DNA from: an uncultured Candidatus Saccharibacteria bacterium
GTDB lineage: Bacteria; Patescibacteriota; Doudnabacteria; UBA920
Length of the DNA: 64,000 nucleotides
Direction of reading: 5' to 3'
Assembly (NCBI GenBank): GCA_964532425.1
Contig: CAZHIA010000001.1
Coordinates: 201,481-265,480 of the forward strand
In this document: positions 9,489-57,121 of the stretch, one piece after another
How the letters are laid out: each line of letters begins with the position of its first letter
Numbering within the stretch: the stretch's first letter is position 1
Program-made: the position numbers and the translations under genes
Notes under the pieces: model-generated
What the model was told of the DNA's origin: nothing
Database searches by the model: none
What the model saw: the letters and a program-made list of their open reading frames with translations, nothing else

Positions 9489-11348
9489 TTATGAGCTTGT
9501 CATACTGGAAGTTGTGCCGAGGAAGTTGAACAGCGCCTGCAGCGTGTTGCGTGTCAGCGGGATCGCAACCCAGCCGGGTGCAAGCGAGGCATGGTTCATC
9601 ATTCCCATCATGTCCATGCCGCCGCCCATTGGCATATTGCCGGGCATGCCCATATTCATTCCGCCGGGCAAGAGGGGCGACCCGCCGGAGCAATTCTGGC
9701 CGATATGGTGCGCAGGGTCAGTATCGTTCGGGTTGGTCGTGTGGTGTGCGGGATCATTGTCGACATTGCCGGAACAGTCAATGTAGTTGCCGTTCATCAT
9801 GGGGTAGCCGTTCGAATATGTGTACGGCGAACCCGGCTGCGTGGAAGTGGATGTCCCTCCGCCAGTTCCCCAGGGAATCGTGCTTGAGCTAAATACGTTG
9901 GGGTACATGGTAAGGAAGCTGCTCGGGACCAGAATCCAGCCGAAGACCTGGTTGCTGCCGATAGATCCGGGTGTGCTGGTGCCGGTGCCGCCTGATTGAG
10001 TGGCAGGCAGGGTTGTGGCTGTCGTGGTGGCGGATTGCGGCGAAGTGTTGCCGTTCTGATCATTTGCGGTAACAAAGTAACTGTACGTTGTCCCCGGATT
10101 CAAGCCGGTGTCCGTAAATGATACGGTCTGCGGACTGCTCGTACTGCCGGAGCTGGTCGAAGCGGCGGTCGTGCTGCCAATTTCCGCGCTGTTGCGGAAC
10201 ACGCGGAATACTACGTTGGCCGGGGTGGTGGAGTCAGTGCTGAAATTCCAAGTCAGGGTAATGGTGGTCGGTGAGGTTGACGAAGCCGCCAAGTTAACCG
10301 GGGTGGGAAGCGTGCTTGTGCCGGTCGTACTTGTCGCTGTGCTACCGCCGGTTGAGGAAGCCATGGGTGTTATAGATACGGTATATGTTTGCACTGACAT
10401 ATTTCCTGCCGGATCCGACGCAGTCAAAGCGTATGAAAATGCCGAGCTGCTTGCAGTGGTGGATGCCGGCGGGGTATCCGTATAGGTAGTCGCTCCCGGC
10501 GAAGTGGTTGCGAGGTGGCTGCCATCGCGGGAGACGTGGTAGCTGAGGTCAGTGGAAGTGTTGTCTGGATCGGTCGAAGCAGTCCAGTTCAAAACTACTT
10601 GTGACGGTACGGTAGACGTAGCCCAAAAGCCGGTCGGTGCTGTCGGAGCCGTGGTGTCCAGAGTGCTCGATGAGGTCGAAGTGTTATTAGTTGCTGGGGT
10701 GTTACTTGTCGTATTGCCGGTTGTCGCTGCCGCGGTTACTGTCACAATCCCTGTCATACCAATACCGCTCTGCGTGCCGTGGTAGCGGCAATAGTATTGG
10801 TAAGTTCCAGCGGTCGGAAATGCATGACTGTACGAGCCGCCGGGCTGGATGTTGCCGCTGTCGAATGAACTATCATTCGCCGTAACGGTGTGTGTGTTCT
10901 GTCCCTGGTTGGTCCAGGTTACGGTAGTTCCTTCAGGTACCGTGATGTCCGCCGGGTTGAAGGTATTGTCAGTGATAGTCACTGTTGACTGCTGGGTGCC
11001 CGTCGCTGTCGTGCTCGTCGTCGTGCTTGAAGCAGTTCCGGTTCCTGCTTCATTGTTGGCCGTCGTGCTTCCAGAGGTGGAGCTGGTGGTCGACTGTTGC
11101 GTGCTCGAGCCGGTGCTGTTCCCGGTATCCGCAGTCGAAGTTGCGGTGCCGGTCAAATTTGAAGCATTGCCAGTGCCGGTAGTGCTTTCCGTTGTGGTGG
11201 TTGCCGTAGATTGCTGCGTGCTGGTCGACGTATCGCCCGAGGTCGTAGTTTGGGCAAACGCATTCGGACCTGCGGTAAGCATCATGAGCGCTGCCAGACC
11301 GGCAAAGCTACCGATTCGCATCAAGCGGTGCATAAGATCTCCTTTCAA
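9489..11348 (-). CDS. secreted multi-domain protein: cupredoxin (type-1 Cu) domain + fibronectin-III repeats + His/Met-rich C-terminal metal-binding tail
   Basis: Signal peptide present. Cupredoxin signature: H...YYCRYHGTQSGIGMTG (Cys-His-Met ligands). FN3-like LNWTAS.. repeats. C-terminal PAHH repeats and GGMNMGMPGNMPMGGGMDMMGMM Met-rich motif. Confidence 0.75.
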   Translation of the reverse strand: MKGDLMHRLMRIGSFAGLAALMMLTAGPNAFAQTTTSGDTSTSTQQSTATTTTESTTGTGNASNLTGTATSTADTGNSTGSSTQQSTTSSTSGSTTANNEAGTGTASSTTTSTTATGTQQSTVTITDNTFNPADITVPEGTTVTWTNQGQNTHTVTANDSSFDSGNIQPGGSYSHAFPTAGTYQYYCRYHGTQSGIGMTGIVTVTAAATTGNTTSNTPATNNTSTSSSTLDTTAPTAPTGFWATSTVPSQVVLNWTASTDPDNTSTDLSYHVSRDGSHLATTSPGATTYTDTPPASTTASSSAFSYALTASDPAGNMSVQTYTVSITPMASSTGGSTATSTTGTSTLPTPVNLAASSTSPTTITLTWNFSTDSTTPANVVFRVFRNSAEIGSTTAASTSSGSTSSPQTVSFTDTGLNPGTTYSYFVTANDQNGNTSPQSATTTATTLPATQSGGTGTSTPGSIGSNQVFGWILVPSSFLTMYPNVFSSSTIPWGTGGGTSTSTQPGSPYTYSNGYPMMNGNYIDCSGNVDNDPAHHTTNPNDTDPAHHIGQNCSGGSPLLPGGMNMGMPGNMPMGGGMDMMGMMNHASLAPGWVAIPLTRNTLQALFNFLGTTSSMTSS

Positions 11349-17330: not shown

Positions 17331-19559
17331 ATGGATCCGAACAGGAAGATTACGACCCAGGTATACCGCAGTTTTTTTGAGCAGCTCACCGATGCATTCC
17401 CGGCTCTGCTCGTCGTTTTTAACTTGCAGACAGGAAAATTCGTGTTTGCGAACAGGAGTCTCGAGCAACTGACGGGGTATTCTTTTAAAGATCTGGAAGA
17501 CGGCGGTTTGATGCGGGCAACCTCCTTATTACATCAAGATGAATTGGGGCTATTAACGGAAAAATTCCAACAAGGGCTGGCCGGGTTGCAGGAGTCCGGC
17601 GGGACTGAGGGTGCTTTTTTGGATCTCGAACACCGGTTGCGGCGGAAACAGGGTTCATGGGCGCGGCTCAGGACACAAGCTACCATATTCACGCGCGATG
17701 CCCAGGGCCGGCCGGAGCTGGTCCTGTTGTTTTCAGTCAGCTGCGCAGCGCGCAAGAAAAGGGCTGTGGCGCCCGGAGCGGCGAGCGAAGAAGCGATTGA
17801 ATCCAAGGTTCGTGACCGCACTGGGGCTTTGCTGGCTGCCCAGCAGAAGGTGATCAATGACCTGAAAAACATCCAGTACGCCCTGGACCAGTCTTCCATC
17901 GTAGCTATTACCGACAAGAACGGGGTCATCCAGTTTGTTAACGATAAATTCACGGAAATTTCCAAATACTCCCGCCAGGAACTCCTCGGGAAAACCCACC
18001 GGATCATCAATTCCCGCTATCATTCAAAAGAATTTTTTAAAGATCTGTGGGATACGATCCTGTCCGGCAGGGTTTGGCGGGGAGAACTGAAAAATCGCGC
18101 CAAAGACGGGACGTACTACTGGGTGGATACGACCATTACGCCGCTGCTTGACGAGCAAGGCAAGCCGAACCAGTTCATTGCCATTCGTAATGATATTACC
18201 GAGCGGAAGCATGCCGAAGATATCGTGCGGTACCAGGCACAGCATGATGCCCTGACCGCCTTGCCGAATCGCAAGGCGCTGGAAGACAGGCTGGCGCTGA
18301 CCCTGGCTTCTGCCGGGATTGTCCAACGGCCGGTTGGATTGGTCTTTTTGGATTTGGACCGGTTCAAGAACGTTAATGATTCGCTCGGTCACAGCATCGG
18401 TGACATGGTTCTCAAGGAGGTCGCAAATCGTCTGCAGGTCGCCGTTCAGGGGGATGACTTGGTCGCCCGCCTGGGTGGTGATGAATTTGTCCTCCTGCTT
18501 ACTCATCCGCTGGGCCTGGATGAAGTGACAAATACAGCGCAAAAAGTCCTCACTCACGTCGCTGTACCGATGAAGATCGGCAAATATCATTTGCACGTGA
18601 CCGCGAGCGCAGGCGTGGCTATGTATCCCGAAGACGGCCAGGACCAGCAGACGCTCATGAAGAATGCCGACTCGGCCCTCTACCGGGCAAAAAAGGCGGG
18701 CAGGAACTGCTACCGTCTGTTCAATAAGGAAGAGAATGCCCAAGCTTCGGCTCGGTTTATTCTCGGCAATGATTTGCGGCAAGCACTCGGGTCTGACCAA
18801 TTGGAACTGCATTACCAGCCGGTGGTCGACACGGAAAGTGGCCAAACAATAGCAACGGAAGCTCTGGTCCGCTGGAACCATCCGGATCTTGGGCTGGTCT
18901 ATCCCGGCGAGTTTATTCCCATTGCCGAAGAGCAGGGGTTGATCGTCGAGCTTGGCGAATGGGTCATGCGCAACGCCTGCCGGCAAATGAAAGAATGGCG
19001 CGCCCAAGGCATGCCGCCCTTTCGAATTTCCATCAACCTTTCCGCACCGCAATTTTCCGATGCGCAGCTGATACCGCTGGTCAGCGATATCCTGCAGGAA
19101 TCAGGCCTGACCGGAGAGCACTTGGAGCTGGAGATCACGGAAAGCGTGGCTGTAGAGAATTTTGACCGGACCAGGCAAAAGCTGCAAGACCTTCGCGATA
19201 TGGGCATTCATCTGACCATGGATGATTTTGGGACCGGGTATTCGTCGCTCAACTATCTGCGGCGTTTTCCGCTGCAGAAGCTCAAGATCGACCGGTCGTT
19301 CGTCCGCCACAGCATCGTCAGTCAACAGGATTCCAGCATCATCCAGGCCATTATCGCTATTGCCAACAATTTGGGACTGAAGATCGTTGCCGAAGGGGTG
19401 GAAACCATGGAACAGTATGAGCTACTCTTAAAATTGGGCTGCTTCCGTATGCAGGGGTATTTGATTAGCAAGCCGCTGCCGGCTCTGGATTTTGCCGCCT
19501 GGGTGAACAATGGCAGCAGTTGGCCGTCGGTTAAACTCTCGCCGCGCCGCCGGATTTGA
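17331..19559 (+). CDS. PAS/PAC-PAS-GGDEF-EAL c-di-GMP signalling protein
   Basis: Two PAS-like segments, GGDEF motif (RLGGDEF), EAL motif with ELEITES and the Mg-binding DDFGTGYSS. Confidence 0.9.
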
Positions 19560-19955: not shown

Positions 19956-22514
19956 TTGATTCATACTTGTATGGAAACAGAAACTTCCACAATTGAAGAA
20001 GGACAACCCGGACAGGAGCCATTCGAAGGCCGCTGGTCGGAAACCGGCGAGAGCCAGATCGATCACCTGCTCTTACAGGTTGATTTGCATGAGCTTTCCG
20101 ATCCGGGGTCGCTCGAAGCTGCTGAACTGTCTCTGTATCCCGAGAATGATGATGAGGGGTTGGGGATGTTGCCGGAGACGGAAGGCGAAGCCGAATTTCA
20201 GGAAAAGTTCGGTTCACTTCCCGAACTCGTTGCCGCTCTGGGTCCGCAGCAGGTTGGTTGGGAAAAAGTCGCAGCCAGTTCCGGTGGCGATGTCTTAAAA
20301 CGCGACGGGCACGAGTGGGTGTTCCGGGACAAAGATGGGCAAGAGACGTCCGTGACGCAGGCAGTGCAGGGTACGGCAATAGAAGCTCGTCATGCCGGCA
20401 TTCTGGAACAGTTGTATAACCAGGGGTTTGCCGTTTCTGAATTTGAGCGCGACCGCGAGACATTGGTGCGGGAAGTGTATTTTGCCGATGAAAAAGGCCG
20501 TATCAGTTTTGAAGTCTATGCCTTCAACAAAGAACAGGATGGATTTGAATTAGATGCAGAGAGAGAACTTGGAGAGGAGAGTGTGGCCAGCAGTGCGGAG
20601 CCGGCACTTCCGGACTCTACTGCTATTGACGATTTGGAAATTGAACCGCAACAACTGACCGTGCAACAGGGGGAAGTTCTATTCGAAACAGCCGTATTAG
20701 GAACAGATATGGAAGCGGAAAGTTCGGACAGTGAACTTTCCGCGGTTGCACTGGAGCTGGATGAAGCCGGAGTTGCGCCCGAATTTTTTGATGATGGAGT
20801 TGTTGAGATCAAAACTGAAGATTTGACCCAGGTCGAACCGGCTGCCGAAGAGATGGCTGTGGATGCGCCTCCGGAAAAGTATGCGGTTTTGCCGAGCAGT
20901 GTTCCGCTGAAAGAGACAGTGATGCAAGCGGCCATGAATGTCGCCGTTGATGGACAGGCTGTCCGGACAGTGGCGGAACATGTATTGCCCATAGAATCCA
21001 TAGGAGTGATGGAAGCAATTTCTTTTGAAGCGCAAGGGATTGGAATTCAGGAACCTGAAATTGAAGCTCACCAGGTCCCGGCAGAGAGTGAGAAGCCAGT
21101 CACTGAATCCGCCGACAGAAAACAAGAGGGTGCAGTGCCGTTTATGGGAATACCGGATGCGATAGTTGTGCGGCAAGAAATAGCTCCGACAGCGGAAGAG
21201 ACAGTACAGGCATTAGGTAATTCAGCCATTGAAACAAGCCGCACGTCCGAAGTACAGCCCAGAGCCGTGCAGCAGAACGCTCCCACTATCGAACTGGCAA
21301 TTATGCCAGAAGTTTTCAGGACTGAGGCACCCGTTCAGGATATCCTGGCGACTGAATCCGCTACCGCAGATATCGAATCGTTGCTGGTGTCGCCAGTGGT
21401 TGCCGAGACGGTTCAAGCGGTTTTGCCTTCGGAAGCGAGCAGCGGGATTGAACTCGACACTGAGTATTGGATTGATTCAGAAACGGACACAGTGAGTATT
21501 GAAACCGGCCCTATGCTCCGGCAAGAAAGAGCTGAGTTTACTGAAGGTACACCAACCGTTGCCCCGGTAGAAATCGGCGGTGAGAAGCCCGCAGAAGGAT
21601 TATTTGAATTTGGAAGTAAACCGGAAATTGTAGAGACGACAGTACAGGAAGATTCTCACGCCAGCCAGGCTATTGAAATCGCTGCCGTATCCGAAGAAGA
21701 GTCCGAGATTCAAATCCAGGAGGATCTCGAACCCGCTCAGGAGTCTAAGCCGCGTCAGATTCAGGCTGTGCCGGAAAGGGTTTACTATGAATTTGCAACT
21801 CTGGAATCATTAGGTATAGCCGTGCAGGACGGTGAAGAAGCACAGGACCGGAGTATGCCTGAAATTTTACTTAAAGGCAGTTTCAAATCAGAACAGCGCG
21901 AGCCGGAGGAGGGGCTTGTGGCCGAATTAGAGGATGCCTCGGTTCGGTACACCAAGACAGTAACCGTCGAAGTGCCAGAGAGGTCTCCCCAGCAGCGGTC
22001 TGGCGAACCTCACCAAACCAGCGCAATAAGTGAATCCCGTAAATCCTCCAATGAGGTATCCACGGAGAAGCTTGGTATTTCGCTCGAAACGGAAGTTGTT
22101 GTAACTGGACAGGAGAGCGCAGTTCTTGTCGCTGAAGAAGATGTTTGGGAAGATCCGCGGGTCGAAACCGGGCAACCTGCGGTTCGGATAGCGGACATGG
22201 GGAGGCTGGAAACGGAGTTCAAAACACCAGCCGCAGTCGAGCCACAACCTATAATGAAGGCCACCCTGCTTCAGGATGGAGCAGAAACCTCCCGTTTTGC
22301 AACGCAGCTTGGTATTGAGTTGAACGAGTCCGTATCCGATGTACGGCAATCCGAATTCGCCAGTCAGCAGCAGCCGGCCTTACGAACCGTTTCGCGGACA
22401 GAAACGCTCGGTAGTGCGGTTCAGGCAGCCCGTCCGGTCTTGGACGCGGATGATTACGAGATGCAAGTGCCGCCAAATTTGCCGCGAGGGAAACGTTTGC
22501 AATTTGCAACATAA
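19956..22514 (+). CDS. very acidic low-complexity protein (Glu/Asp/Ala/Val-rich), unknown function
   Basis: 852-aa ORF. An N-terminal roughly 180-aa globular region is followed by about 650 aa of degenerate acidic repeats. It is co-directional with and 40 bp upstream of the ClpB-like gene. Confidence 0.6.
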   Translation: MIHTCMETETSTIEEGQPGQEPFEGRWSETGESQIDHLLLQVDLHELSDPGSLEAAELSLYPENDDEGLGMLPETEGEAEFQEKFGSLPELVAALGPQQVGWEKVAASSGGDVLKRDGHEWVFRDKDGQETSVTQAVQGTAIEARHAGILEQLYNQGFAVSEFERDRETLVREVYFADEKGRISFEVYAFNKEQDGFELDAERELGEESVASSAEPALPDSTAIDDLEIEPQQLTVQQGEVLFETAVLGTDMEAESSDSELSAVALELDEAGVAPEFFDDGVVEIKTEDLTQVEPAAEEMAVDAPPEKYAVLPSSVPLKETVMQAAMNVAVDGQAVRTVAEHVLPIESIGVMEAISFEAQGIGIQEPEIEAHQVPAESEKPVTESADRKQEGAVPFMGIPDAIVVRQEIAPTAEETVQALGNSAIETSRTSEVQPRAVQQNAPTIELAIMPEVFRTEAPVQDILATESATADIESLLVSPVVAETVQAVLPSEASSGIELDTEYWIDSETDTVSIETGPMLRQERAEFTEGTPTVAPVEIGGEKPAEGLFEFGSKPEIVETTVQEDSHASQAIEIAAVSEEESEIQIQEDLEPAQESKPRQIQAVPERVYYEFATLESLGIAVQDGEEAQDRSMPEILLKGSFKSEQREPEEGLVAELEDASVRYTKTVTVEVPERSPQQRSGEPHQTSAISESRKSSNEVSTEKLGISLETEVVVTGQESAVLVAEEDVWEDPRVETGQPAVRIADMGRLETEFKTPAAVEPQPIMKATLLQDGAETSRFATQLGIELNESVSDVRQSEFASQQQPALRTVSRTETLGSAVQAARPVLDADDYEMQVPPNLPRGKRLQFAT

Positions 22515-22554
22515 ATTCAGATGTCTTACCCGCTTCGCAATGGCGTCCTAAGGT

Positions 22555-24243
22555 TTGAATATAACAATTGAGGTAGTCCGTATGGTCGATTTTAACAAAA
22601 TTTCATATTACGACCTGAAGCTGGAAGCAATGAAGGGCAGGCTTGCGGCTGTTGTGGGTAGACGCGATGAGTTCTCTCGAATCTCGCGTGTCATTGCGCG
22701 TCATATTCATAATAACTGCATTTTGGTCGGGAATAGCGGCGTGGGCAAGACTGCGCTTATTCACGGGTGGGCTCAATCGACACTGTTGGATGAAAACCGC
22801 TCCATGCTTCCTATTGTGCAGCTTGAAGCGGAAAGTTTTGCGTCTTTCGGTTCGGCGGGGACCATCCCACTGCAGCGTTATAAGGAGGCGTTCGAATCCC
22901 TGCCCCCCTGTGTGTTGGTTATCGACGATTTTGGGGGGATCGTTTACAATAAACCGTCAGCCGTGCATACGATGCTCCAGCTGCTCAGACCGGTGGCGGA
23001 GAGTGGCCAGGTGCAGCTTATGCTCGTCATGGAAACCAAAGAACATAAATGGTTGGAGAACGAGCAGCCGAATTTTTTGAATTTTTTTGAGACCATTCCG
23101 GTCAAGGAACAATCGCATGCTGAGCAGTTGGAAATTTTAAAAAATTCTCAGGAGTGGTTCCGCAGCAAGCAGGCCGCGGGCGCGGATGATGTTTTGCTCG
23201 AACTTATTCTGCAGCTGGTGCAGCGGTTTGCCATGCTCGGGCAATTACCGGCTTCGGCTGTGAAGATTTTGGATGAAGTTCTGGCGCTTGCCCAGGCAGA
23301 AGGAAGAATGCAGGCCGCTGAATCCGACGTGTACCGGGTCGTTTCGGACAAAGCCGGTATCCCGCTGTCGCAGCTGCAAGTTTCGGAAAAAGAACAGCTT
23401 AAGAATTTGGAGCGCAATTTGAATTCCCGGATCATTGGGCAGCCGGCCGCGCTGAGTCGGATCGCCTCGACGATCAAGCGTGCCAAACTGGGTTTAAAAA
23501 ATCCGGGACGTCCGCTGGGTTCGTTTCTGGTGCTCGGCCCATCCGGCGTTGGTAAAACCGAGACGGCAAAATTCTTGGCCGAGACCGTATTCGGAAAGTC
23601 CGACAGTTTCATCCGTATCGACATGTCCGAATTCGGGCAGGAGCACACGGTGGCCCGGCTGATCGGCTCTCCCGCCGGCTATGTGGGGTTCGATGCGGGC
23701 GGCGGCCTCACCAATGCGGTCAAGCAGGAGCCGTACAGCTTGGTGCTGCTCGACGAGATCGAAAAAGCACACCCGAAGATTTTTGATATATTTTTGCAGA
23801 TCCTGGACGACGGCCGCTTGACCAGCGGGCAGGGTGAGACCATCGATTTCACCCAGACTATTGTCATGGCCACTTCGAATATGGGTGTGGAAGAGATTAT
23901 CAGGGGCCACGAGACGGGAGAAGATGTACATAGCGACTCGTTCTTCCAACAGCGGCTTGTGCCAGTGCTCTCGAAATCTTTCCGCCTGGAATTTTTAAAC
24001 CGATTTGACGCGGTGCTGGTATTCAAGCCGCTGACCGAACCTGATCTGTTGGAGATCGCCAAACTGGAAATTAAGAAGGTTGAGGCTCGCGTGTCCCGGC
24101 ACAACATCAAGTTCAAGATTGACCCTTCCGTACTTGTCAGGCAGATCAGAAACCTTGCAGATCCGCGTTTTGGCGCCCGCCCGGTCAAGCGGTTCGTAGA
24201 GACGACGTGCGAAGATTTGATTAGTAAAAAATTGTTACAATAG
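22555..24243 (+). CDS. truncated Clp/Hsp100-family AAA+ ATPase (degenerate D1 + canonical ClpB-type D2)
   Basis: D1 has Walker A GNSGVGKTA but an aberrant Walker B (VLVIDDFGG). D2 has IIGQ...LGPSGVGKTE, Walker B LLDEIEKAH, sensor/arginine-finger context and a C-terminal small domain. It is only 562 aa and lacks the N-domain and long M-domain. Confidence 0.8.
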   Translation: MNITIEVVRMVDFNKISYYDLKLEAMKGRLAAVVGRRDEFSRISRVIARHIHNNCILVGNSGVGKTALIHGWAQSTLLDENRSMLPIVQLEAESFASFGSAGTIPLQRYKEAFESLPPCVLVIDDFGGIVYNKPSAVHTMLQLLRPVAESGQVQLMLVMETKEHKWLENEQPNFLNFFETIPVKEQSHAEQLEILKNSQEWFRSKQAAGADDVLLELILQLVQRFAMLGQLPASAVKILDEVLALAQAEGRMQAAESDVYRVVSDKAGIPLSQLQVSEKEQLKNLERNLNSRIIGQPAALSRIASTIKRAKLGLKNPGRPLGSFLVLGPSGVGKTETAKFLAETVFGKSDSFIRIDMSEFGQEHTVARLIGSPAGYVGFDAGGGLTNAVKQEPYSLVLLDEIEKAHPKIFDIFLQILDDGRLTSGQGETIDFTQTIVMATSNMGVEEIIRGHETGEDVHSDSFFQQRLVPVLSKSFRLEFLNRFDAVLVFKPLTEPDLLEIAKLEIKKVEARVSRHNIKFKIDPSVLVRQIRNLADPRFGARPVKRFVETTCEDLISKKLLQ

Positions 24244-24424
24244 TTATTAGTAGTAATCTCGAATATGGCGAATACAGCGCAAATATACCAATAGTTATTG
24301 GCCGTTCAAATTTCAAAAGGTGGTGTGCTGTATTCGTATATTTGTGCTTGATTCGTATATTAGAGAATACTATTTTGAGATTACTCCTCCTCGATTATTA
24401 TTAGGGAATACCCCTTAAACGTAT

Positions 24425-24739
24425 ATGAACAAGAACGAGTTGATTCCATCACGCGAGTTGTCGCCGTCTCAATCAGCGGAAACCGAGGCACCTTCAGGCA
24501 TGTTGACCAAGGATGATGCGGAACGGGTGTATGCCGGCAGGCAGCACGATCTGGAACAGGTTCGCCCGTTTATTTGCCTGAAGTTCTACCATGAGATCAG
24601 CGAAAAGCTCGAGCGGGAAAAGCGCCAGTTCGACCGGTTACTGCATATCGAGGATAAAAAGCAGGACATACTCTCGCGCTACACCTTCGTGCTGAACCCA
24701 TACTTTTTTGAACAGAGGTTTATCGATCAACGAGCCTAG
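24425..24739 (+). CDS. hypothetical protein
   Basis: 104-aa ORF followed by the GC palindrome/terminator at 24761. Confidence 0.45.
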   Translation: MNKNELIPSRELSPSQSAETEAPSGMLTKDDAERVYAGRQHDLEQVRPFICLKFYHEISEKLEREKRQFDRLLHIEDKKQDILSRYTFVLNPYFFEQRFIDQRA

Positions 24740-24870
24740 TTGCAAATTTCCAATATCCAATTTCCAACCTGCCTGCCGGCAGGCAGGTTTCCAATAAAAT
24801 GTCTAATGCTCGAATTTGGAAATTATTATATTTGAAATTTTGTTAGGAATTAGAAATTGGGAATTTGAAA
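24730..24870. repeat. AT-rich CCAAAT/ATTTGG inverted-repeat element centred on CCTGCCTGCCGGCAGGCAGG (copy B)
   Basis: The same 20-bp GC palindrome lies at 24761-24780, flanked by ttccaatatccaatttccaa / gaaattgggaatttgaaatttt arms. Confidence 0.7.
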
Positions 24871-24874
24871 TTTT

Positions 24875-26158
24875 ATGCCTACGTCTTCTATTATTCTTGG
24901 TGAAAACATTTACCGCAATGTGCATCGGCCAATCGTGTTCCAGGACCATGACCGGCTGCGCCATACGTACATGCTCGGCAAGACCGGAGTGGGGAAGTCC
25001 ACGGTCTTTCAGAATATGTGCTTGCAGGACATCCGCAACCGGCACGGCGCCTGTTTTATTGACCCGCACGGCGAATCTATTGCTTGGCTGCTGGAACGTA
25101 TCCCAGAAAACCGCCTGGAAGATGTCATTCTGTTTGAACCTGCGGACGAGGACTGCTCATTCGGGCTTAACCTGCTTGAGGCCAGCAGCGAGCGCGAGAA
25201 AGATTTTTTGGTCTCCCAGGTCATTGAAATTTTTTACAAGCTATTCGATCCCGGACGAACCGGCATTATCGGCCCGCAATTCGAACACTGGCTGCGCTGC
25301 GCTGCGCTGACGGTCATGGCGGGCCCGGAAGGCGGGAGTTTAATAGAGATCCCCCGGCTGTTCATTGATAAGGGGTTTGAAGCCAAAAAACGCAAGTACC
25401 TCAAAGACCCGGTGGTCCTGGATTTTTGGACCAAACAAATGGCCGGCACTTCGGATTTCCACAAGTCAGAAATGCTCAACTACTTCACCTCAAAGTTCGG
25501 CCATTTCATGAACAATTCGCAGATGCGCAACATTATCGGCCAGCGCGTTTCATCATTCAATTTTGACGAGGTACTGCGCCAGGAAAAGATTCTACTGGTC
25601 GATCTATCCAAGGGCAAGATTGGAGACATGAATGCGCAAATGCTCGGGCTCATTTTGGTAGCCAAGTTGCAGGGGGCGGTGCTCAGGCGTGCCGCCGTAC
25701 CGGAGCAGGAACGATACCCGTTCTACCTGTATGTCGACGAATTCCAGAATCTGGTCACAGACACGTTCGCGTCCATGCTGTCCGAGTCGCGCAAGTACGG
25801 CCTCGGGGTGCATTTAACCAACCAGTACTTCGCGCAGCTGCCGCCGGCTATGCAAAATGCCGTGCTGGGCAACGTCGGCACGCTGCTGGCGTTTGAAGTG
25901 GGCGTGGAAGATGCACAAATCTTAAGCCGCGAATTTGCCCCTATCGACAAGGAAGACTTTATAAACCTGCCGCGCTTCTCGTTTTATATCAAGCTGATGA
26001 TTGATGGCAAGACAAGTGAGGCATTTTCCGGAACCAGTCTGCCGCCGGACAGCAAGGTCATGGCAGGCAACGGCGATCGTATTCGTCAGATCAACCGTCT
26101 AGCTTATGCCGTCCCGCGCCTTCTCGCTGAGGAGCTGGTGAAGAGTTATATGAGATAG
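24875..26158 (+). CDS. TraD/VirD4/TrwB-like P-loop ATPase domain protein (T4SS coupling-protein-like, no TM anchor)
   Basis: Walker A GKTGVGKST and Walker B YLYVDEFQNL, followed by the SESRKYGLGVHLTNQ motif typical of the FtsK/TraD/HerA clade. Confidence 0.55.
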   Translation: MPTSSIILGENIYRNVHRPIVFQDHDRLRHTYMLGKTGVGKSTVFQNMCLQDIRNRHGACFIDPHGESIAWLLERIPENRLEDVILFEPADEDCSFGLNLLEASSEREKDFLVSQVIEIFYKLFDPGRTGIIGPQFEHWLRCAALTVMAGPEGGSLIEIPRLFIDKGFEAKKRKYLKDPVVLDFWTKQMAGTSDFHKSEMLNYFTSKFGHFMNNSQMRNIIGQRVSSFNFDEVLRQEKILLVDLSKGKIGDMNAQMLGLILVAKLQGAVLRRAAVPEQERYPFYLYVDEFQNLVTDTFASMLSESRKYGLGVHLTNQYFAQLPPAMQNAVLGNVGTLLAFEVGVEDAQILSREFAPIDKEDFINLPRFSFYIKLMIDGKTSEAFSGTSLPPDSKVMAGNGDRIRQINRLAYAVPRLLAEELVKSYMR

Positions 26159-47137: not shown

Positions 47138-47526
47138 TGGTGGAGATGCCGGGAGTTAAACCCGGGTCCAAAACGTATCGATCTTCCCATTATTCACAAG
47201 ATTAGTCGGTTATTGTACCTCTATGATATCCAACCGACAACGAATCATAAAGGCTGATATACAAGTCTTGTTCCCGGCAGGTATATCGGCCACCGGGCTA
47301 GCAACCTCTAATGAACCCACTAACCCCGAGCGGAGGTGCGCGCGGGAGTGAGGTAACAACCTAAAGTTAGGCCATTACAGGTGCGAGGTCGGCGTTTTGA
47401 AACGCGGCCACTACCTTTTGCCAGGAATTGGCATTTGTTGGTTGATCGCAGGATTTTCGAGGTCAGCAATCGTGCTCGTCTTGCATATGAAAAGATGTCA
47501 AAGTTCTGTCAAAAACCGTCATCCCC
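47138..47526 (-). ncRNA. ssrA: tmRNA (SsrA), one-piece
   Basis: On the minus strand the 5' end is GGGGAUGACGG and the 3' end is GGACCCGGGUUUAACUCCCGGCAUCUCCACCA. The 7-bp acceptor stem has a G3-U pair (alanine identity). A T-arm with a 7-nt loop is followed by ACCA. An internal tag-like frame follows a UAGUG context, analogous to E. coli UAGUC-GCA: GCC GCG UUU CAA AAC GCC GAC CUC GCA CCU GUA AUG GCC UAA (AAFQNADLAPVMA*). Confidence 0.7.
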
Positions 47527-50657: not shown

Positions 50658-50812
50658 AAACCATTCGAAAACCGCTAGCCCTCCGCCAGCGGTTATATGT
50701 AAAAGAGGAACTGACACCTTGTTTGTTTATTAGAATATAGTACCGGAGGCTTCTGCTGGTGAATACATAGTCCTTTGTAGAATATCAAAATTTACAAAGA
50801 TTATCTTTGTGT

Positions 50813-50851
50813 ATGGGGGACTGAAGGAGTAAGTTTGAGATTTCTGCTATT
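50813..50851. repeat. direct repeat ATGGGGGACTGAAGGAGTAAGTTTGAGATTTCTGCTATT (left copy)
   Basis: Its partner lies at 57705..57747, with a 17-nt identical core GGACTGAAGGAGTAAG plus extended similarity. The pair brackets the low-GC island. Confidence 0.7.
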
Positions 50852-51074
50852 TTTGAAACCGCGCTCTAGGGCGACTTTGTTTTGCAAAGGTCCCCACGCA
50901 ATGGTCACCTTGGTATACCTTGGTATATGATTTGGTCGTTCGGAAAAGAAATAATAAACTATTTCAATAATTTCAATAGCAATAAATAAGTCTTCATGCG
51001 CCTTATTTATTTATACTTGTTAAATAAGCCAAAAAATGGCATACTATCTGTGTAAATTACTATAGCCAACAATA

Positions 51075-53498
51075 ATGTTGAAGATCTATCTAAAACAAGA
51101 CTGGGATTATCCATCCAATTACGATCCCAATACTAACCCCGGACACTTCGCTGGAAGAGATAAAGAGAAGAAAGAATTAGTCGATGAATTCCTGCGTAAA
51201 GATAACGGTAGTATTTTAATTAGCGGCGCAAGAGGTGTCGGTAAAACCTCTTTAGTTTACTACGCATTAAAAGAGTCTCAAGTAAGAAATACAAATATTA
51301 TTCCTATTGTCCTTAATGCATCTCAATTAGAGCTCCATACTTACCAGGTAACTACTAAGGATAAGGATTTGCCTTATGTTATTATAGAAAACCTGATCAG
51401 AAGACTATACGGGTATTTTCAGACAGATGGTACTAAAGTAGAAATTAGTAACAAAAATTATCAAAAGTTAGGCAACCTTTACAAGAAAGCCACGGCTAAA
51501 GAATATAGTCACTCTGAGCGATATGGAAACAAGGATGAATCTGTTGACGAAAATACCGTTGAAGAAACAAATACAGCTGAATCTACTTTCGATAAAAAAT
51601 CTCTTATTAACCTATTTTACTTAATAGGCATTTATACTCTATTTGCTGATCAATATTTTAATATAGAATATTGGAACAAAATAATTGGCATAACCTTTTT
51701 ATTTATACCCACATTTAGTTATAAATATCTATTTAAATCTGTTAAAAAGAACTTAAGTAAACTTAGCAAATCTAATTCCGCAGAAGATTTATACAAGGAA
51801 GATAATTCTTTGGGCAATCTTGAATATGAACTGAATTCTCTACTAAAAGAGTTATGCAAAGAAGGCAAAAAAGTCATTTTTGTCATTGACGAACTGGATA
51901 AGTTGGAAGATTCTCAAGAGTCAGAATCTAAAAAAGTATTTGAAATTATTAAAACTTTTAAGAATCTTTTTACTTTATCTTCTGCTTTGTTTGTTTTTAT
52001 TACTAGTGATATTTCATATAATACTGTAATGGCAACGAGAGCAGAACGTAGAATGTATTACACTTTATTTACTAATCGAATCTTTTTAAATCGGCCAGCG
52101 TATACTGACTTGGTTAAATATCTTAAAGGTATTGTAGATTATGTTGACAATAGTTTAACCAAAGATCGACCAGAGTTTACAGCCTTAGAGCAAAAGGATA
52201 GAGAGAAATTAAATGGTCTCTTCAATCATTTATGTTATGAAGCAAAAGGAGACTATTTTGAGCTATCTTTTGTTATTAGAGACTACATTAATGATTACAG
52301 TACAGAAGGCGAAAAACAACCAATAATCAATCTTGAGGACGATAAATACTTCGGCTTTGATGATAGGCTGAAAGCTAAACTACAAATAGTAGTAGCTCAA
52401 ATATACGATATAAATAAAAATCCAGTCCAATCACGTTGGCATGAGAATGATGGAATACTATCACAGCTTTATGGTTTCTTTGAGCGTAATCTCGCCAAAG
52501 GAACTTTTAGAATTAACCAGAAAACTGAAAATCAGTTAATAAAAGATGATTTAATCACTTACCTAAAAAGATTAGAAATTATTAAACTTCTAAAAAAAGA
52601 ACCGGAACAAGAAAATTCGGAACCAGACGTTGTCCATGTTTATCAATGGACAAATAACATTCCTGGAGAAAAAAGCATTCCAGATATTCCCGAAGCTCCA
52701 AATACTTTATTTAATGAAGAGCAAGCTTTTATTAATATCGCTAAGAAATACGTTCAATTAATTAACGATATTGATGACTTGGAAACCGATGCTAAAAATG
52801 TTGCTGAAGGAAAGTTTGAAAGAGGATCCTATGATTTTGAAACTGGAATAATTCAAACCCGTGATGCCAGCTCCATAACTGGTATTAATGCCTTTAACTT
52901 TTTTGAAAAATACGATGACTATATTTCCGGATTACTTGATTCTAAGCCCGAACATATTAATAAAGCAGATTTAAAGAATTTCACTAAGGAATTTGAAGAA
53001 GAGTTAAACAAGATTAAAGAGGCTACACTAAATATATTTAAAAATCTACTAATTAAAGTATTTAACTCTACAGGTTTTCAACATGGATTTGCCACTTTAC
53101 CCGAAGACGGCTCATTATTCACAAGCCTGAATGACTTAAGGACCGAAGTTGTTAATAAAGGAGTTCCACATTTTGTAGTATATAACTTAGACCCTGAGAA
53201 ATCTAAGCAGCTTTTAGTTACTCAAAATATAGACCTGAATATTTTGAGTAATGAAACTATAAAGTTACTGGATAAAAATTTATCGTATAGAATACTCAAC
53301 ATTCAAACTAATTCAGCACTAGACTACTCAAATAAAAATAAGTACAAAGATCAAAAGACTGAAACTACTAAAGGCAAAAGTAGAGTAACCGAGTTTACAA
53401 AAACGTCCGATTCATTTATTAACCTTGTAGCTAATAATGATTTATCAGTTTATCCTGAAATGCTAAAATCTGTTCATGATTGGTTTAATAGTAAGTAA
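51075..53498 (+). CDS. KAP-family P-loop NTPase (STAND-like, PifA-like) with membrane hairpin inserted between Walker A and B, plus large unknown C-terminal region
   Basis: FAGRDKEKKEL..x..ILISGARGVGKTSL Walker A, then two hydrophobic helices (LINLFYLIGIYTLFADQYF, IIGITFLFIPTFSYKYLF), then Walker B VIFVIDELDKLED. About 30% GC, against about 55% for the window. Confidence 0.65.
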   Translation: MLKIYLKQDWDYPSNYDPNTNPGHFAGRDKEKKELVDEFLRKDNGSILISGARGVGKTSLVYYALKESQVRNTNIIPIVLNASQLELHTYQVTTKDKDLPYVIIENLIRRLYGYFQTDGTKVEISNKNYQKLGNLYKKATAKEYSHSERYGNKDESVDENTVEETNTAESTFDKKSLINLFYLIGIYTLFADQYFNIEYWNKIIGITFLFIPTFSYKYLFKSVKKNLSKLSKSNSAEDLYKEDNSLGNLEYELNSLLKELCKEGKKVIFVIDELDKLEDSQESESKKVFEIIKTFKNLFTLSSALFVFITSDISYNTVMATRAERRMYYTLFTNRIFLNRPAYTDLVKYLKGIVDYVDNSLTKDRPEFTALEQKDREKLNGLFNHLCYEAKGDYFELSFVIRDYINDYSTEGEKQPIINLEDDKYFGFDDRLKAKLQIVVAQIYDINKNPVQSRWHENDGILSQLYGFFERNLAKGTFRINQKTENQLIKDDLITYLKRLEIIKLLKKEPEQENSEPDVVHVYQWTNNIPGEKSIPDIPEAPNTLFNEEQAFINIAKKYVQLINDIDDLETDAKNVAEGKFERGSYDFETGIIQTRDASSITGINAFNFFEKYDDYISGLLDSKPEHINKADLKNFTKEFEEELNKIKEATLNIFKNLLIKVFNSTGFQHGFATLPEDGSLFTSLNDLRTEVVNKGVPHFVVYNLDPEKSKQLLVTQNIDLNILSNETIKLLDKNLSYRILNIQTNSALDYSNKNKYKDQKTETTKGKSRVTEFTKTSDSFINLVANNDLSVYPEMLKSVHDWFNSK

Positions 53499-53585
53499 AG
53501 TTTACCGAATGCGTGGTACTAGAGGCTTTGAATTTGGCAAACTATTTTGCTCTAAATAAGGCATTTTTGGGCAAATAATATCAAT

Positions 53586-54245
53586 ATGACCACTAAGGAA
53601 CAAGTGCTTACTTTAATTTTCCAAGCTGTTCCGTCTTTCCAAAATTCAAAGATTTGGAAAGAGCATTTAGAATTTTGGGGAGATACAGAAGAACGAGGCT
53701 TGTACAATGATACGGCTGAATTGGCTAGATATATGGCGGAACAATATAAGGCTGGGGAAACTAAGGAACTTCCAGCATTATTCACATTGATTGAAAAGTT
53801 GTACCTCGAGGGAGATCATTACGTCAAAGAATTGGCAACAATTGGATTCTTAGAAGATCTTCAAGGCCAATTTGGTAATGCTGAAATAAAATCTGAGGTA
53901 TTAGAAAAGTATCTTGGACCTGAATCACAAAAATGGTGGAACTATTTAAATAACATTTGGTCAGGCAAGCTAAAGGAAAAATATCAATGGTTCCATGAGC
54001 GTGTTACTGAAATCGTCAATGCGCTTGACCCCTGGTATTTAATTTCAGGAGGTGCCCCCAAAGATGAATATAGCCAGGAAGTTACCCGAATTATAGCTGG
54101 TCTGAAGGATTGCGAAACGGAAGAGGATGCAAGGCAGCTTGTACTTAAACATTTAGGTGGCGAAAACAGTAGCAAAGAAGCTTGCGCCAAGATTGCCCAG
54201 CAGGTTTTCAAAATTTGGGAACAAATATTATTTTCCAAGGAATAA
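53586..54245 (+). CDS. hypothetical protein (island gene 2)
   Basis: 219-aa ORF, low GC. Confidence 0.5.
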   Translation: MTTKEQVLTLIFQAVPSFQNSKIWKEHLEFWGDTEERGLYNDTAELARYMAEQYKAGETKELPALFTLIEKLYLEGDHYVKELATIGFLEDLQGQFGNAEIKSEVLEKYLGPESQKWWNYLNNIWSGKLKEKYQWFHERVTEIVNALDPWYLISGGAPKDEYSQEVTRIIAGLKDCETEEDARQLVLKHLGGENSSKEACAKIAQQVFKIWEQILFSKE

Positions 54246-54249
54246 TTGT

Positions 54250-55176
54250 ATGTGGCCATTTAAGAAAGAAAATAAAAAATTCATGCTGCTTCAATCGGAA
54301 AAAGAAGGCAGGCCGGTTTGGATAACTGTCGATGGCAGCTTGAAAAATTTAGCAAAAAAAGATGAAACTCCCTGGTGTCTTTGGCTTGGAATACAAATTG
54401 AATCCCAAAAAGGATTACCGGACGAAAAGGAAGCAAAAGAGTTGAATGATTTTGAGGATGAAATTCAGAATAAATTATCAAAAATTGGTAAAATTCATTT
54501 TGTTCTTAGAACTACCTGGAACGGCCATCGGGACTTGTATTTTTACTTAAGTAAGGCAAAAGAATCCCATGAACTCCTATTGGGTATTACAAATTTACCA
54601 AAACCGCCGAAACAATTTCAATATGAAATTTCAAAAGACCCAAATTGGCAATCTGTTAATTGGGTATTTGAGCAACTAGATAAACAGCCTAAATCAGACA
54701 ATCCGAAAGATGAGAATAGTGTGACTTTGTTTGCTTTCAACAGCAATGAGAAACTGAAATCTCTTGCATATAGGGCTTTGAATGATGCAATAGAATTTAT
54801 GAAGAAAGATGGAAAATTTAACCCTTTCTGTTTAACAGAAAAAGAACTTTGGCGTCCAAAGTCCATTGGCGTTAATGAAAATATTCAAGAAATAGAAAAA
54901 CACATTGGTGTCTTACAAGACGAAACCATTGCTGTTTACTGCCATAGTGGTACAATCGGCATTCCGCCTTTTGGTAAAGAGGTAAACTGGCCGACACAGT
55001 TTGCAATATTTGTAAAAGCTTATGATAAAAACGAAGATAAAGGGTACTTGATTTTTCAGATGTATCGTCCAAGGACTGAAGCGGAAGGATTTGCTATATT
55101 AGGAAATACCACAATAGCACCAACTCCTAATATTTTTATTCATAGCTGTTTTCACGAAGGTGGCCTTTGCAAGTAA
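54250..55176 (+). CDS. hypothetical protein (island gene 3)
   Basis: Start at the ATG of MWPFKKENKK... 308 aa, low GC. Confidence 0.5.
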   Translation: MWPFKKENKKFMLLQSEKEGRPVWITVDGSLKNLAKKDETPWCLWLGIQIESQKGLPDEKEAKELNDFEDEIQNKLSKIGKIHFVLRTTWNGHRDLYFYLSKAKESHELLLGITNLPKPPKQFQYEISKDPNWQSVNWVFEQLDKQPKSDNPKDENSVTLFAFNSNEKLKSLAYRALNDAIEFMKKDGKFNPFCLTEKELWRPKSIGVNENIQEIEKHIGVLQDETIAVYCHSGTIGIPPFGKEVNWPTQFAIFVKAYDKNEDKGYLIFQMYRPRTEAEGFAILGNTTIAPTPNIFIHSCFHEGGLCK

Positions 55177-55747
55177 TTTGGAAAAACGAATGAAAAGAAG
55201 AGGGCATCTGTGGTTGCGGATTTCAGAAGAATCTAATGCCTTAGATAATCTCCAAAAAGCATATTCATTTATCATTCAAACCCATTCTGATGAGAATGCT
55301 TGGAAATGGGTTATATTAAGTATCCACTCCGCTTTATTCAGTTTTGCTATATGCGCTTTAAAAGGTACAAGTACTATAAATGTAACTATTCAGACAAAAA
55401 AAGGTGAGAGATTGATTAGTTTTCCTGAAGCGATCGAAATGGTACAGGACGAGAATCGGATGAGAATGACCGTGATGAGTAAGCATCTCCAGTTAACAGA
55501 TGACGAAAAGCGCTCGATAGATAGGCTGCATACAGAATTTCGAAATGAATTAGAACATTACATACCTAAATTATGGGTAATTGAAGTTCCCATGCTGCCG
55601 AAGATGGTTACTCACTGCTTGGATGTAATTAGATTTTTAGCTATTGAGTCAGGTAATTACGATCATTTTAGTGGCTACCAAAAACGAAAAATCAAATCAC
55701 TGATTTTCCAAAGTAAGAAATTTCTTACAAAGATGACCTTCGTTTAA
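55160..55747 (+). CDS. hypothetical protein (island gene 4)
   Basis: 195-aa ORF overlapping the previous stop. The true start may be the internal Met (MKRRGHLWL). Confidence 0.4.
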   Translation: MAFASNLEKRMKRRGHLWLRISEESNALDNLQKAYSFIIQTHSDENAWKWVILSIHSALFSFAICALKGTSTINVTIQTKKGERLISFPEAIEMVQDENRMRMTVMSKHLQLTDDEKRSIDRLHTEFRNELEHYIPKLWVIEVPMLPKMVTHCLDVIRFLAIESGNYDHFSGYQKRKIKSLIFQSKKFLTKMTFV

Positions 55748-55826
55748 ATACCTGTTTCTACAGGTATTTTCATTTAGCATGGTATTATTATAGGAGGAGT
55801 GCTACCTATAATTTGGTAATAGATAC

Positions 55827-56150
55827 ATGCTCAGGTTTTTAAAAACTCTCCATACTGTTATCTGGGTAATAATGGCCTCTGCCAATTTTTTGGCTTTTTA
55901 TTTTGCCTACATCGGCAGATTTGATGCCTGGTTTTGGGTACCCTGCTTACTCATAGTGGGTGAGAGCATAATAGTAGCCATGAACGGATGGCACTGCCCC
56001 ATAACCCCGATTGCGGCGAAGTACACGAAAGACCGAAATCCAAACTTTGATATTTATTTGCCTCAATGGTTAGCCGAATACAATGTCCGAATCTTTGGCA
56101 TACTCATAGTCTTGGAAATCATTATTGTTCTGGCCAAAAGATATAGGTAA
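55827..56150 (+). CDS. small membrane protein (DUF2784-like), island gene 5
   Basis: Two to three TM helices and a GWHCPITP motif. Confidence 0.5.
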   Translation: MLRFLKTLHTVIWVIMASANFLAFYFAYIGRFDAWFWVPCLLIVGESIIVAMNGWHCPITPIAAKYTKDRNPNFDIYLPQWLAEYNVRIFGILIVLEIIIVLAKRYR

Positions 56151-56180
56151 AAAGTACAAAAAGGTACCTGACACCATTTT

Positions 56181-56212
56181 GTTCCCGGATTTAACTCCCG
56201 GCATCTCAACCG
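56181..56212 (+). repeat. partial copy of the tmRNA 3' end (T-arm + acceptor 3' strand), inverted relative to ssrA
   Basis: gttcccggatttaactcccggcatctcaaccg matches ggacccgggtttaactcccggcatctccacca (the ssrA 3' end) at 27 of 32 positions. Confidence 0.75.
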
Positions 56213-56217
56213 TATAT

Positions 56218-56252
56218 GAAAACCACCCTTCGACTAGTTCAGGGTGGTTTTG
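56218..56252. terminator. conserved terminator hairpin AAAACCACCCttcgactagttcaGGGTGGTTTT (family copy 3)
   Basis: Differs from copy 1 at only 3 loop positions. Confidence 0.8.
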
Positions 56253-56255
56253 TGT

Positions 56256-56864: not shown

Positions 56865-56977
56865 AAACCCTCCTTAATATGGTTGACTCGAAATCGCTCT
56901 TGCTCCTAAACGGACTCAGCAGGAGTAGGGGTTGCAATAAGGTGTCGTGTGCCTTTTTTGTCCCACACCCATTGCTC

Positions 56978-57019
56978 ATTATTCTAAAAAAGCTGCATAT
57001 GCAGCTTTTTGTAGAATGA
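56978..57019. repeat. 44-bp palindrome family copy 3 (CATTATTCTAAAAAAGCTGCATATGCAGCTTTTTGTAGAATGAT)
   Basis: Seen directly. A TTGACA-N17-TAGACT promoter-like sequence lies about 45 bp downstream. Confidence 0.9.
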
Positions 57020-57121
57020 TAAGATTTTCAATGATTACCTTTGCGTGTCTGTCTTGACAAATTATAGTAGTCATAGTAGACTTTGTAGTCTTATAAAGAT
57101 ATGGAAGTAGGGGGGATTAAA

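Follow-up and report, generated by a model that had tools for sequence, protein, structure and literature searches.

The 64,000-nt stretch of Doudnabacteria DNA analysed here, referred to throughout as the window (contig CAZHIA010000001.1, positions 201,481 to 265,480 of the forward strand), contains four co-directional genes, designated A to D, that form a real and self-contained operon found in Parcubacteria-type Patescibacteria. All four lie on the + strand: gene A (19971..22514) encodes a large charged protein of 847 aa, gene B (22582..24243) a two-ring Hsp100/Clp-type AAA+ protein of 553 aa, gene C (24425..24739) a 104-aa protein that is probably helical, and gene D (24875..26158) a soluble P-loop ATPase of 427 aa that resembles the type IV coupling proteins (T4CPs) of the VirD4/TrwB fold. 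The A-B-C-D order on a single strand was complete in 12 of 12 independent loci, so that the condition named beforehand in the preliminary description of this DNA as refuting it, namely homologues that never co-localise, does not hold. That description had also held that this is not a textbook operon, and we agree: the cassette brings together members of known ATPase families and two orphan proteins in an undescribed, lineage-wide combination, of which full-text literature searches returned no description. We tentatively hypothesize, with somewhat less than even confidence, that the operon encodes a dedicated client-threading module in which A is the client, B an unfoldase, C an adaptor, and D a ring derived from a coupling protein.

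Conservation and gene models of the cassette

DNA was sampled at nine D orthologues, all different, as well as at other homologues of C, and the cassette was present in every locus of sufficient length. The 12 loci comprise the window together with L002, L005, L006, L008, L089, L090, L091, L092, L093, L101, and L102; a metagenome scan with a C alignment listed at least four loci. The loci belong to Magasanik-, Falkow-, Doudna-, Wolfe-, and Pacebacteria and other lineages, and encode A proteins of 487-1021 aa that lack Pfam matches, B proteins of 548-556 aa, C proteins of 79-105 aa, and D proteins of 423-429 aa; B also adjoins C on two further short contigs. The flanks differ from genome to genome and include, for example, FtsZ, RecG, pentose-phosphate genes, ribosomal proteins, and glycosyltransferases. 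As the same order is kept amid these unrelated flanks, we consider A to D to be a functional unit. The GC content of the cassette tracks that of its host, from 0.26 to 0.51, each locus holds one cassette, and in many genomes B, C, and D are joined by 4-bp overlaps or spaced by less than 20 bp.

The four open reading frames (ORFs) reported previously in the window (19956-22514, 22555-24243, 24425-24739, and 24875-26158) are all present, and the starts of two of them were revised. The ORF of A opens at a TTG at 19956 (852 aa) and that of B at 22555 (562 aa); the likely starts are ATG 19971 and ATG 22582, giving 847-aa and 553-aa proteins that both stand as called products in a public protein collection. 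For B, a GAGGT Shine-Dalgarno sequence lies 8 nt before ATG 22582, and its orthologues begin aligning at residue 10. Moving the start of B to this ATG widens the gap between A and B from the previously given 40 bp to 67 bp.

A scan of species-representative genomes with D gave a different picture for its longer relatives. All 80 loci listed carry a long D paralogue (720-1570 aa, 43-55% identical over the ATPase module), with hosts among the Saccharibacteria, Microgenomates, Berkelbacteria, and Doudnabacteria. These long paralogues have an N-terminal transmembrane helix and a ~350-aa domain before the module and are much more divergent than D, and no relatives of A, B, or C were found in the 80 listed loci (1.3 Mb, both strands). 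An exhaustive representative search returned 4,725 representatives below 1e-30, among which the long form is dominant, and the short D form constitutes essentially one 50%-identity cluster; on these comparisons, short D appears to be a tight, slowly evolving offshoot. The possibility that the cassette is a split long paralogue was rejected, as the A and C profiles match neither the long forms nor their neighbours. A gene fusion of D with a Clp-like domain was sought in six very long D-family proteins and none was found, these proteins carrying TPR arms or disordered tails instead.

Some of these long relatives are of interest in their own right. In P0125-P0136 (1580-2006 aa) the ATPase module is followed by 790-1230 aa of Pro/Ala/Glu-rich, net-acidic, disordered sequence that ends in KLxxGE[VI][FY]VDExGNV[IV][IV]GE, an in-cis parallel to the separate A protein. 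Other long D-family members carry ~1000 aa of N-terminal TPR repeats.

The ATPases B and D

B matches the Pfam models AAA_2 (1.9e-55) and ClpB_D2-small, the match to its first ring (D1) being weak and that to its second ring (D2) strong. It is collinear with residues 180-720 of ClpA in the PDB-match alignment, with the N-domain left off; there is no Clp_N match and no M-domain, D1-small running directly into D2. Its best matches are all ClpB, ClpC, or ClpA, and its D2 is ~55% identical to that of ClpB, with scores far below every NCBIfam cut-off, among them those for ClpB (TIGR03346, 404 versus 1232), ClpA (TIGR02639, 380 versus 993), and ClpV1 (TIGR03345, 351 versus 885).

The preliminary description had proposed that D1 of B is inactive and D2 canonical, and an alignment of eight orthologues with Thermus thermophilus ClpB, together with HMMER matches, both bore this out and extended it. 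Ring D1 (22612..23364, +) is degenerate. Its P-loop, GNSGVGKT (22729-22752, +), is kept, with the Walker A pattern G-x-x-G-x-GKT retained across the orthologues, whereas the Walker-B-like segment VLVIDDF (22912-22932, +) is without the catalytic Glu, which is replaced by Asp, Ser, or Asn in eight of eight orthologues. In these eight proteins the KYRG pore loop is deleted or replaced, so that it lacks an aromatic residue, and other residues stand in place of the ERRF arginine fingers throughout; sensor-1 is not conserved. Ring D2 (23392..24243, +) consists of a canonical AAA_2 module and a D2-small domain, and is complete in all eight orthologues, with Walker A and B, the pore loop GYVG, the arginine finger, and sensor-2 GAR. 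The motifs suggest that D1 probably still binds nucleotide without hydrolysing it or gripping substrate, and that D2 would be a complete motor. At the position of the IGL loop of ClpA, eight of eight orthologues carry GxD[IV]HS[ED]xF; alignment with the ClpB/ClpA chimera 5ofo places ETGEDVH of B opposite SIGLIH of the ClpA segment, and the ClpP-docking loop is absent.

B had been called truncated, yet we found no sign of decay, its length holding steady in all 12 loci. A full-length Clp protein with Clp_N is also kept in at least a Magasanikbacteria genome, from which it follows that B is a specialised paralogue, and it is a stable one rather than a decayed gene. This anatomy raises the alternative of a specialised proteostasis module, in which B would be a stand-alone unfoldase or disaggregase, A a holdase-like or solubilising partner, and C and D regulatory or merely co-transcribed. 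The resemblance of B to ClpB, ClpC, and ClpA and the separate full-length Clp would both suit such a role. Highly charged disordered proteins can be solubilisers, and A could act as one. We nevertheless consider this reading improbable: B has neither the M-domain that Hsp70-coupled disaggregation requires nor the N-domain through which clients and adaptors are bound, and the strict linkage of B to D (12/12, with overlapping stop and start codons) and the extreme conservation of D, described below, would go unexplained.

D gave weak Pfam matches to TrwB_AAD_bind (3.4e-9, above the cut-off of that model) and TraG-D_C (3e-5), and also matched phrog_5156 and the PADLOC mad8 (5e-13) and HerA models. 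Its Walker A, GKTGVGKS (24977-25000, +), and Walker B, YVDEF (25730-25744, +), are invariant in 39 sequences. An AlphaFold2 (AF2) model built from a 39-sequence alignment (pLDDT 89.8) was compared with the PDB using Foldseek, which returned TrwBΔN70 (TM-score 0.60-0.65, with a structural alignment of ~435 columns), Cagβ (8dol; 0.66), and VirB4 (0.61), followed by DndH-C (0.58), DotL (0.55), and HerA (~0.5); SIR2-HerA, DUF4297-HerA, and TdpAB are also among the structural neighbours. The earlier view of D as a soluble, anchor-free ATPase holds, as it contains no hydrophobic 19-mer and opens directly with the soluble module that resembles TrwB and Cagβ. Inserted in D is an all-alpha domain (25190-25579, +; residues 106-235) that forms a helical block in the model.

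D is unusually well conserved. Its orthologues (~425 aa) occur in Doudna-, Falkow-, Magasanik-, Pace-, Wolfe-, and Kaiserbacteria and in genomes labelled "Patescibacteria group", and are 66-80% identical across lineages of the candidate phyla radiation (CPR), with a mean of ~72%, which places the window in a CPR genome. Invariant columns make up 45% of residues 106-235 versus ~30% of the nucleotide-binding domain (NBD). Coupling proteins usually show the opposite pattern, and this concentration of invariance in the all-alpha domain suggests that the domain may have an invariant binding partner.

The statement that no type IV secretion system (T4SS) genes lie nearby was also sustained, the ten other window ORFs that were scanned containing no T4SS domains. 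Across the cassette loci, no VirB4, mating-pair, or relaxase domains were found within 8-10 kb in 11 of 12, the remaining locus having a divergent TrbL_3 gene. In that locus (L090, Falkowbacteria) the TrbL_3 (VirB6-like) gene encodes 808 aa and is divergently adjacent to A (357-2783, -). Just downstream of D on the same contig (9378-17042, -) lie a bAvd-like protein and a 2419-aa protein that is possibly the target of a diversity-generating retroelement.

On a plasmid of Embleya (Actinomycetota), a 30%-identical long D homologue lies between a PrgI-family protein, a VirB4-like ATPase, and a relaxase-family protein. This monoderm conjugation cluster suggests that D descends from genuine monoderm coupling proteins, with the anchor and the T4SS neighbourhood having been lost. 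The closest relative of D in a cultured bacterium is a 395-aa, anchor-free protein with 32.5% identity on the Sulfitobacter mediterraneus plasmid NZ_CP081110.1 (L104, 7989-9176); it is solitary, with a DUF3768 gene on one side and transposases on the other, and has no Clp-like neighbour; the plasmid is non-mobilizable.

The kinship of D with HerA-type ATPases also invites the view that the cassette is an anti-phage or anti-plasmid defence system, or the cargo of a mobile element, composed of a HerA/FtsK-like ATPase and an AAA+ partner. PADLOC gave partial matches of B, in its D2 region only, to PDC-M37B and DolB, in addition to the mad8 and HerA matches of D, and SIR2-HerA, DUF4297-HerA, TdpAB, and DndH among the structural neighbours of D, along with its phrog_5156 match, point the same way; the hypervariable A could then be a sensor or decoy. 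These were single-domain partial matches only, with none for A or C, and no complete PADLOC system was found. Moreover, scans with Pfam, NCBIfam, and PADLOC detected no nuclease, Sir2, TIR, or methylase effectors, the flanks are of a housekeeping type, and the 66-80% identity of D, stable synteny, host-like GC content, and single cassette are the opposite of what patchy defence islands with their rapid turnover look like. The viral and plasmid relatives of D are distant (at most 42% and 32.5% identical, respectively), and none is a short form accompanied by B, which also led us to reject a viral or plasmid origin. A role in defence or as mobile cargo therefore seems very unlikely.

The orphan proteins A and C and the surrounding DNA

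In its 852-aa version, A contains 15.6% Glu, 20.8% Asp plus Glu, and 6.7% Lys plus Arg, for a net charge of -120. Searches of Pfam, NCBIfam, PADLOC, and PHROG gave no match for A, and neither a signal peptide nor a transmembrane segment was found; the protein is probably mostly disordered. A had been described as about 75% low-complexity, which proved a large overestimate, as a SEG-like measure gave only 3.6% and Tandem Repeats Finder found no tandem repeats. What does hold is that A is acidic nearly throughout, with 88% of its residues lying in 30-aa windows of at least 20% Asp plus Glu.

Three regions can be distinguished in A. The first is an N-proximal orphan domain of ~100 aa (20211..20525, +; residues ~86-190 in the 852-aa numbering) that can be aligned across eight lineages at 16-39% identity, with one Trp invariant. 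The second, in the middle, is long, highly charged, and very variable in length and sequence, and the mean pairwise identity over the whole protein is 0.25 versus 0.72 for D. A single-sequence AF2 model of the domain was uninformative (pLDDT 47). Homologue searches with the domain, whether as a single sequence or as an eight-sequence profile, were empty, which is probably due to a word-index limit, as a local hidden Markov model (HMM) of the domain recovers all of the cassette orthologues and matches cassette loci only.

The third region is the C-terminal tail (22476..22511, +; …NLPRGKRLQFAT), a member of a conserved hydrophobic/basic tail family ending in …AA. An -AA end was found in 7 of 12 orthologues compared to 8 of 143 control ORFs, and an Ala within the last two residues in 11 of 12 compared to 24 of 143; the controls were taken from the same DNA with a minimum length of 200 aa. 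Recurring patterns among the tails are GI[TS]LxRxAA and PEFELAA. The tail looks ssrA-like, resembling a protein-recognition tag. The window also contains a transfer-messenger RNA (tmRNA) gene (47138-47526, -; Rfam 124 bits) with the tag peptide ANSWQKVVAAFQNADLAPVMA, which ends in …VMA and not in the classical …LAA; ends seen among the A proteins include …AA, …VA, and …AT.

These features allow the view that A to D are no functional unit, with adjacency due to chance or shared ancestry and A a spurious ORF, to be weighed. In its favour, A and C have no database family and the searches with the A domain were empty. However, the latter probably reflect word-index limits, with local profiles finding all orthologues, and both the A domain and the A C-terminus are conserved. 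Frames of A of 600-1021 codons also stay open in genomes down to 26% GC, which together with the conserved domain and C-terminus speaks indirectly for the translation of A, and the gene order recurs in 12 of 12 loci with differing flanks, versus none of the 80 listed long-paralogue loci. We consider this explanation scarcely credible.

Two Magasanikbacteria strains illustrate how A can vary. Their B, C, and D proteins are identical, and A is 1021 aa in one (L002, 4926-7991) versus 487 aa in the other (L004, 6528-7991), the difference corresponding to copies of a repeat unit of ~234 bp; this reflects either strain-level repeat expansion or assembly collapse.

The acidity of A underlay the earlier suggestion of a polyanionic, DNA-mimicking protein. 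This idea is weakened by the net charges of the orthologues, which span -203 to -29, and by four lineages with near-neutral tails. It has a wider counterpart in a cytoplasmic nucleic-acid machine, in which D would translocate DNA or RNA in the manner of FtsK, HerA, and TrwB and so serve a housekeeping role, for example in segregation, in repair, or in dealing with imported DNA, B would remodel or load D, and A would be a charged regulator, spacer, or mimic. The mean 72% identity of D is at the level of core informational proteins, its fold family (TrwB, HerA, FtsK, VirB4, DndH, TdpAB) consists mostly of DNA translocases, the cassette has no membrane component, some loci have DNA-related neighbours (RecG, Pif1, NrdR/ribonucleotide reductase, FtsZ), and A is strongly acidic in the window. 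Conversely, the flanks differ in every genome, so that there is no consistent DNA-metabolism context, and the unconserved charge of A speaks against a mimic. B is furthermore of a protein unfoldase type, the GYVG of its D2 being a classical substrate-gripping loop, and the tail of A resembles a tag read on proteins. On balance, we regard a nucleic-acid machine as unlikely, although it is the most probable of the rivals.

In each of the 12 loci an ORF of 79-105 aa separates B from D. The C protein has a variable N-terminus, a core that is probably helical, and a conserved C-terminal motif, YSFVLNPYYFEQKF, which reads [RK]YSFVL[ND]PxYFEQKF across orthologues; in the window the motif with its invariant residues, as judged from the alignment, is YTFVLNPYFFEQRF (24680-24721, +). 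C is translationally coupled to D. No match was found in Pfam, NCBIfam, PADLOC, or PHROG, and profile searches against Pfam and the PDB gave chance-level matches only. A WXG100 identity was rejected, since C and seven orthologues have no WXG100 match even at E ≤ 1.

The spacers on either side of C in the window measure 181 bp (B-C, 24244-24424) and 135 bp (C-D, 24740-24874). The former contains an inverted repeat (24269..24355) with 25-nt arms at 24269-24293 and 24331-24355 that are 84% complementary. The latter (24744..24873) contains a 24-nt AT-rich inverted repeat (24744-24767/24850-24873), inside which a GC palindrome, AACCTGCCTGCCGGCAGGCAGGTT (24766-24789), is nested. The AT-rich repeat element noted previously is thus present in the form of inverted repeats, but it is local, occurs singly within the window, and is accompanied by the GC palindrome. 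As each of the spacer repeats occurs once and no other copies exist in the window, a dispersed mobile element within it was rejected. The B-C inverted repeat is not conserved in L092 or L090; L092, the closest relative, retains the GC palindrome in the corresponding position, and the other spacer repeats are not conserved in relatives. The palindrome may act within the operon as a hairpin or attenuator. In an independent short-read assembly of this sample (SRR11567520; L001 and L103), the contigs break in both AT-rich spacers, one contig ending 117 bp past B and another starting 104 bp before D.

Several other features of the window were recorded. Directly upstream of the cassette is a gene for a 742-aa PAS-GGDEF-EAL protein (17331-19559, +); c-di-GMP signalling proteins are unexpected in a reduced CPR genome. 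A cupredoxin and fn3 protein is encoded nearby (9489-11348). Further along, a low-GC island (50810-57747; GC 0.31-0.37 at ~51000-56000) lies between 42-nt direct repeats that are 81% identical (50810-50851 and 57706-57747). Its products are a DUF7674 protein (53586-54245), a DUF695 protein (54157-55176), and an AAA/STAND-like ATPase of 807 aa (51075-53498), and the island resembles a defence island or an inserted element. Two families of intergenic palindromic hairpins, each with four copies, resemble repetitive extragenic palindromic (REP) elements or terminators: ATTCTACAAAAAGCTGCATATGCAGCTTTTTGTAGAAT at 43545, 46478, 56980, and 60265, and AAAACCACCCT…AGGGTGGTT at 44856, 46025, 56219, and 60317. 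There is also one exact 43-nt duplicate at 48701/49644.

A tentative threading mechanism and its relation to known systems

In the client-threading module that we tentatively propose, A would be the client, its C-terminal tail serving as a tag in the manner of the degrons read by Clp proteins or the C-terminal signals of T4CP substrates. The D2 ring of B would thread and unfold A, and the B hexamer would dock onto a D hexamer (6:6) via the loop that replaces the ClpP-docking loop. Using its C-terminal motif, C would bind D at the all-alpha domain and act as an adaptor or regulator, as CagZ does on Cagβ. From D, unfolded A would move on to an unlinked partner in the membrane, which would be a CPR T4SS or a membrane-anchored long paralogue, and a variable charged protein would thus come to lie at the cell surface or outside it. 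The 12/12 linkage, the anatomy of B, the fold of D, the client-like character of A, and the small C upstream of D argue for this reading. The substrate/chaperone/translocation module mentioned in the preliminary description fits the anatomy of the parts in the same way, while still being a function that we infer.

Several points weigh against this mechanism. The direction of threading and the docking of B onto D are drawn from analogy only. Membrane segments are missing from all four proteins, and a channel gene (VirB6/TrbL-like) is linked in only 1 of 12 loci; given that the cassette has no membrane component, the export step is purely inferred. The A domain gave only chance-level matches in profile searches against Pfam and the PDB, and the acidity of A is not conserved among its orthologues, as described above. 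Finally, conservation is far greater in D than in the tail of A, a pattern that would be unusual for a receptor and its client; it could instead mean that D has an invariant partner, for example nucleic acid, B, or C. A CPR-specific secretion-feeding machine, in which a dead-D1 Hsp100 would be stacked coaxially on the soluble D hexamer and thread the …AA-tailed, hypervariable, Sec-independent A toward a T4SS or an anchored paralogue, is in our estimation doubtful.

Patescibacteria account for much of the diversity of bacteria, and the majority of the genes conserved in them are without known function. Review literature states that T4SS substrates must be unfolded and describes no dedicated unfoldase (PMC12857230). 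The T4SS locus of Southlakia is without a recognisable coupling protein (PMC10633639). A 2025 survey of 2,918 Patescibacteria genomes counted 5,713 VirD4-type homologues, only 148 of them near virB4, and stated that exaptation of these homologues "cannot be ruled out" (PMC12102498); the lack of virB4 linkage for the D of the cassette agrees with this survey. What our analysis adds is that one slow-evolving branch of the VirD4-like homologues is soluble and always found within a four-gene operon. If the client-threading module is correct, it would provide a concrete answer to how T4SS-type substrates are unfolded, and it would define a new class of CPR proteins that are exported or processed. 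The secretion-feeding machine, if real, would be the first case of a dedicated unfoldase working with a coupling protein of the type IV style; it would also explain the orphan VirD4-like genes of Patescibacteria and identify a fast-evolving family of surface or host-directed effectors. Even with the export step wrong, the cassette would be a well-defined two-ring ATPase machine, with predicted interfaces between the C tail and the D all-alpha domain, between the B D2 loop and D, and between the A tail and the B pore.

Among known systems, the class I Hsp100/Clp proteins (ClpA, ClpB, ClpC, and ClpV) share with B a two-tier AAA+ architecture, a canonical D2, and, for ClpA, collinearity over residues 180-720. 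B differs from them in having no N-domain, no M-domain, and no ClpP IG[LF] loop, and in its degenerate D1; it belongs to Hsp100/Clp in the broad sense and falls outside ClpB/Hsp104, ClpA/ClpC/ClpE, and ClpV. ClpV of type VI secretion systems (T6SSs) is nonetheless a precedent for an Hsp100 paralogue dedicated to a single operon-encoded client, as we propose for B. However, the ClpV N-domain binds VipB and both ClpV rings are active, and the B loci examined are without T6SS domains.

The likeness to type VII (ESX) secretion is one of analogy only: both pair a cytosolic AAA+ protein and an FtsK/HerA ATPase with a ~100-aa helical protein bearing a C-terminal tail and with large, Sec-less substrates. 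EccA, however, is CbbX-like with TPR, and EccC is membrane-anchored with three ATPase domains, whereas B is Clp-type and D is soluble with one domain; no WXG100, EccB, EccD, EccE, or MycP was detected for the cassette. The HerA modules (HerA-NurA, SIR2-HerA, DUF4297-HerA, and TdpAB) belong to the same ring-ATPase superfamily as D (TM-score ~0.5), but D lacks the N-terminal barrel (HAS) of HerA and has no nuclease or Sir2 partner, and the T4CPs match it better. Also related to D are the long CPR and monoderm paralogues (phrog_5156-like, 780-2000 aa), some of which carry a disordered tail of 900-1200 aa with a C-terminal motif that echoes A; they differ in their transmembrane helix and ~350-aa domain and lie beside A, B, or C in none of the 80 listed loci.

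A further comparison is with the T4CPs themselves (VirD4, TrwB, TraD, Cagβ, and DotL), above all those of monoderm (MPF-FATA) conjugation. Like them, D has a P-loop NBD with an inserted all-alpha domain and intact Walker A and B motifs, and the small helical C just upstream of D recalls their partners CagZ and TraM. Unlike them, D has no N-terminal membrane anchor, and in 11 of 12 loci it is unlinked to virB4, relaxase, or mating-pair genes. It is extremely conserved, with the all-alpha domain the most invariant part instead of the most variable, and a Clp-type AAA+ protein always accompanies it.

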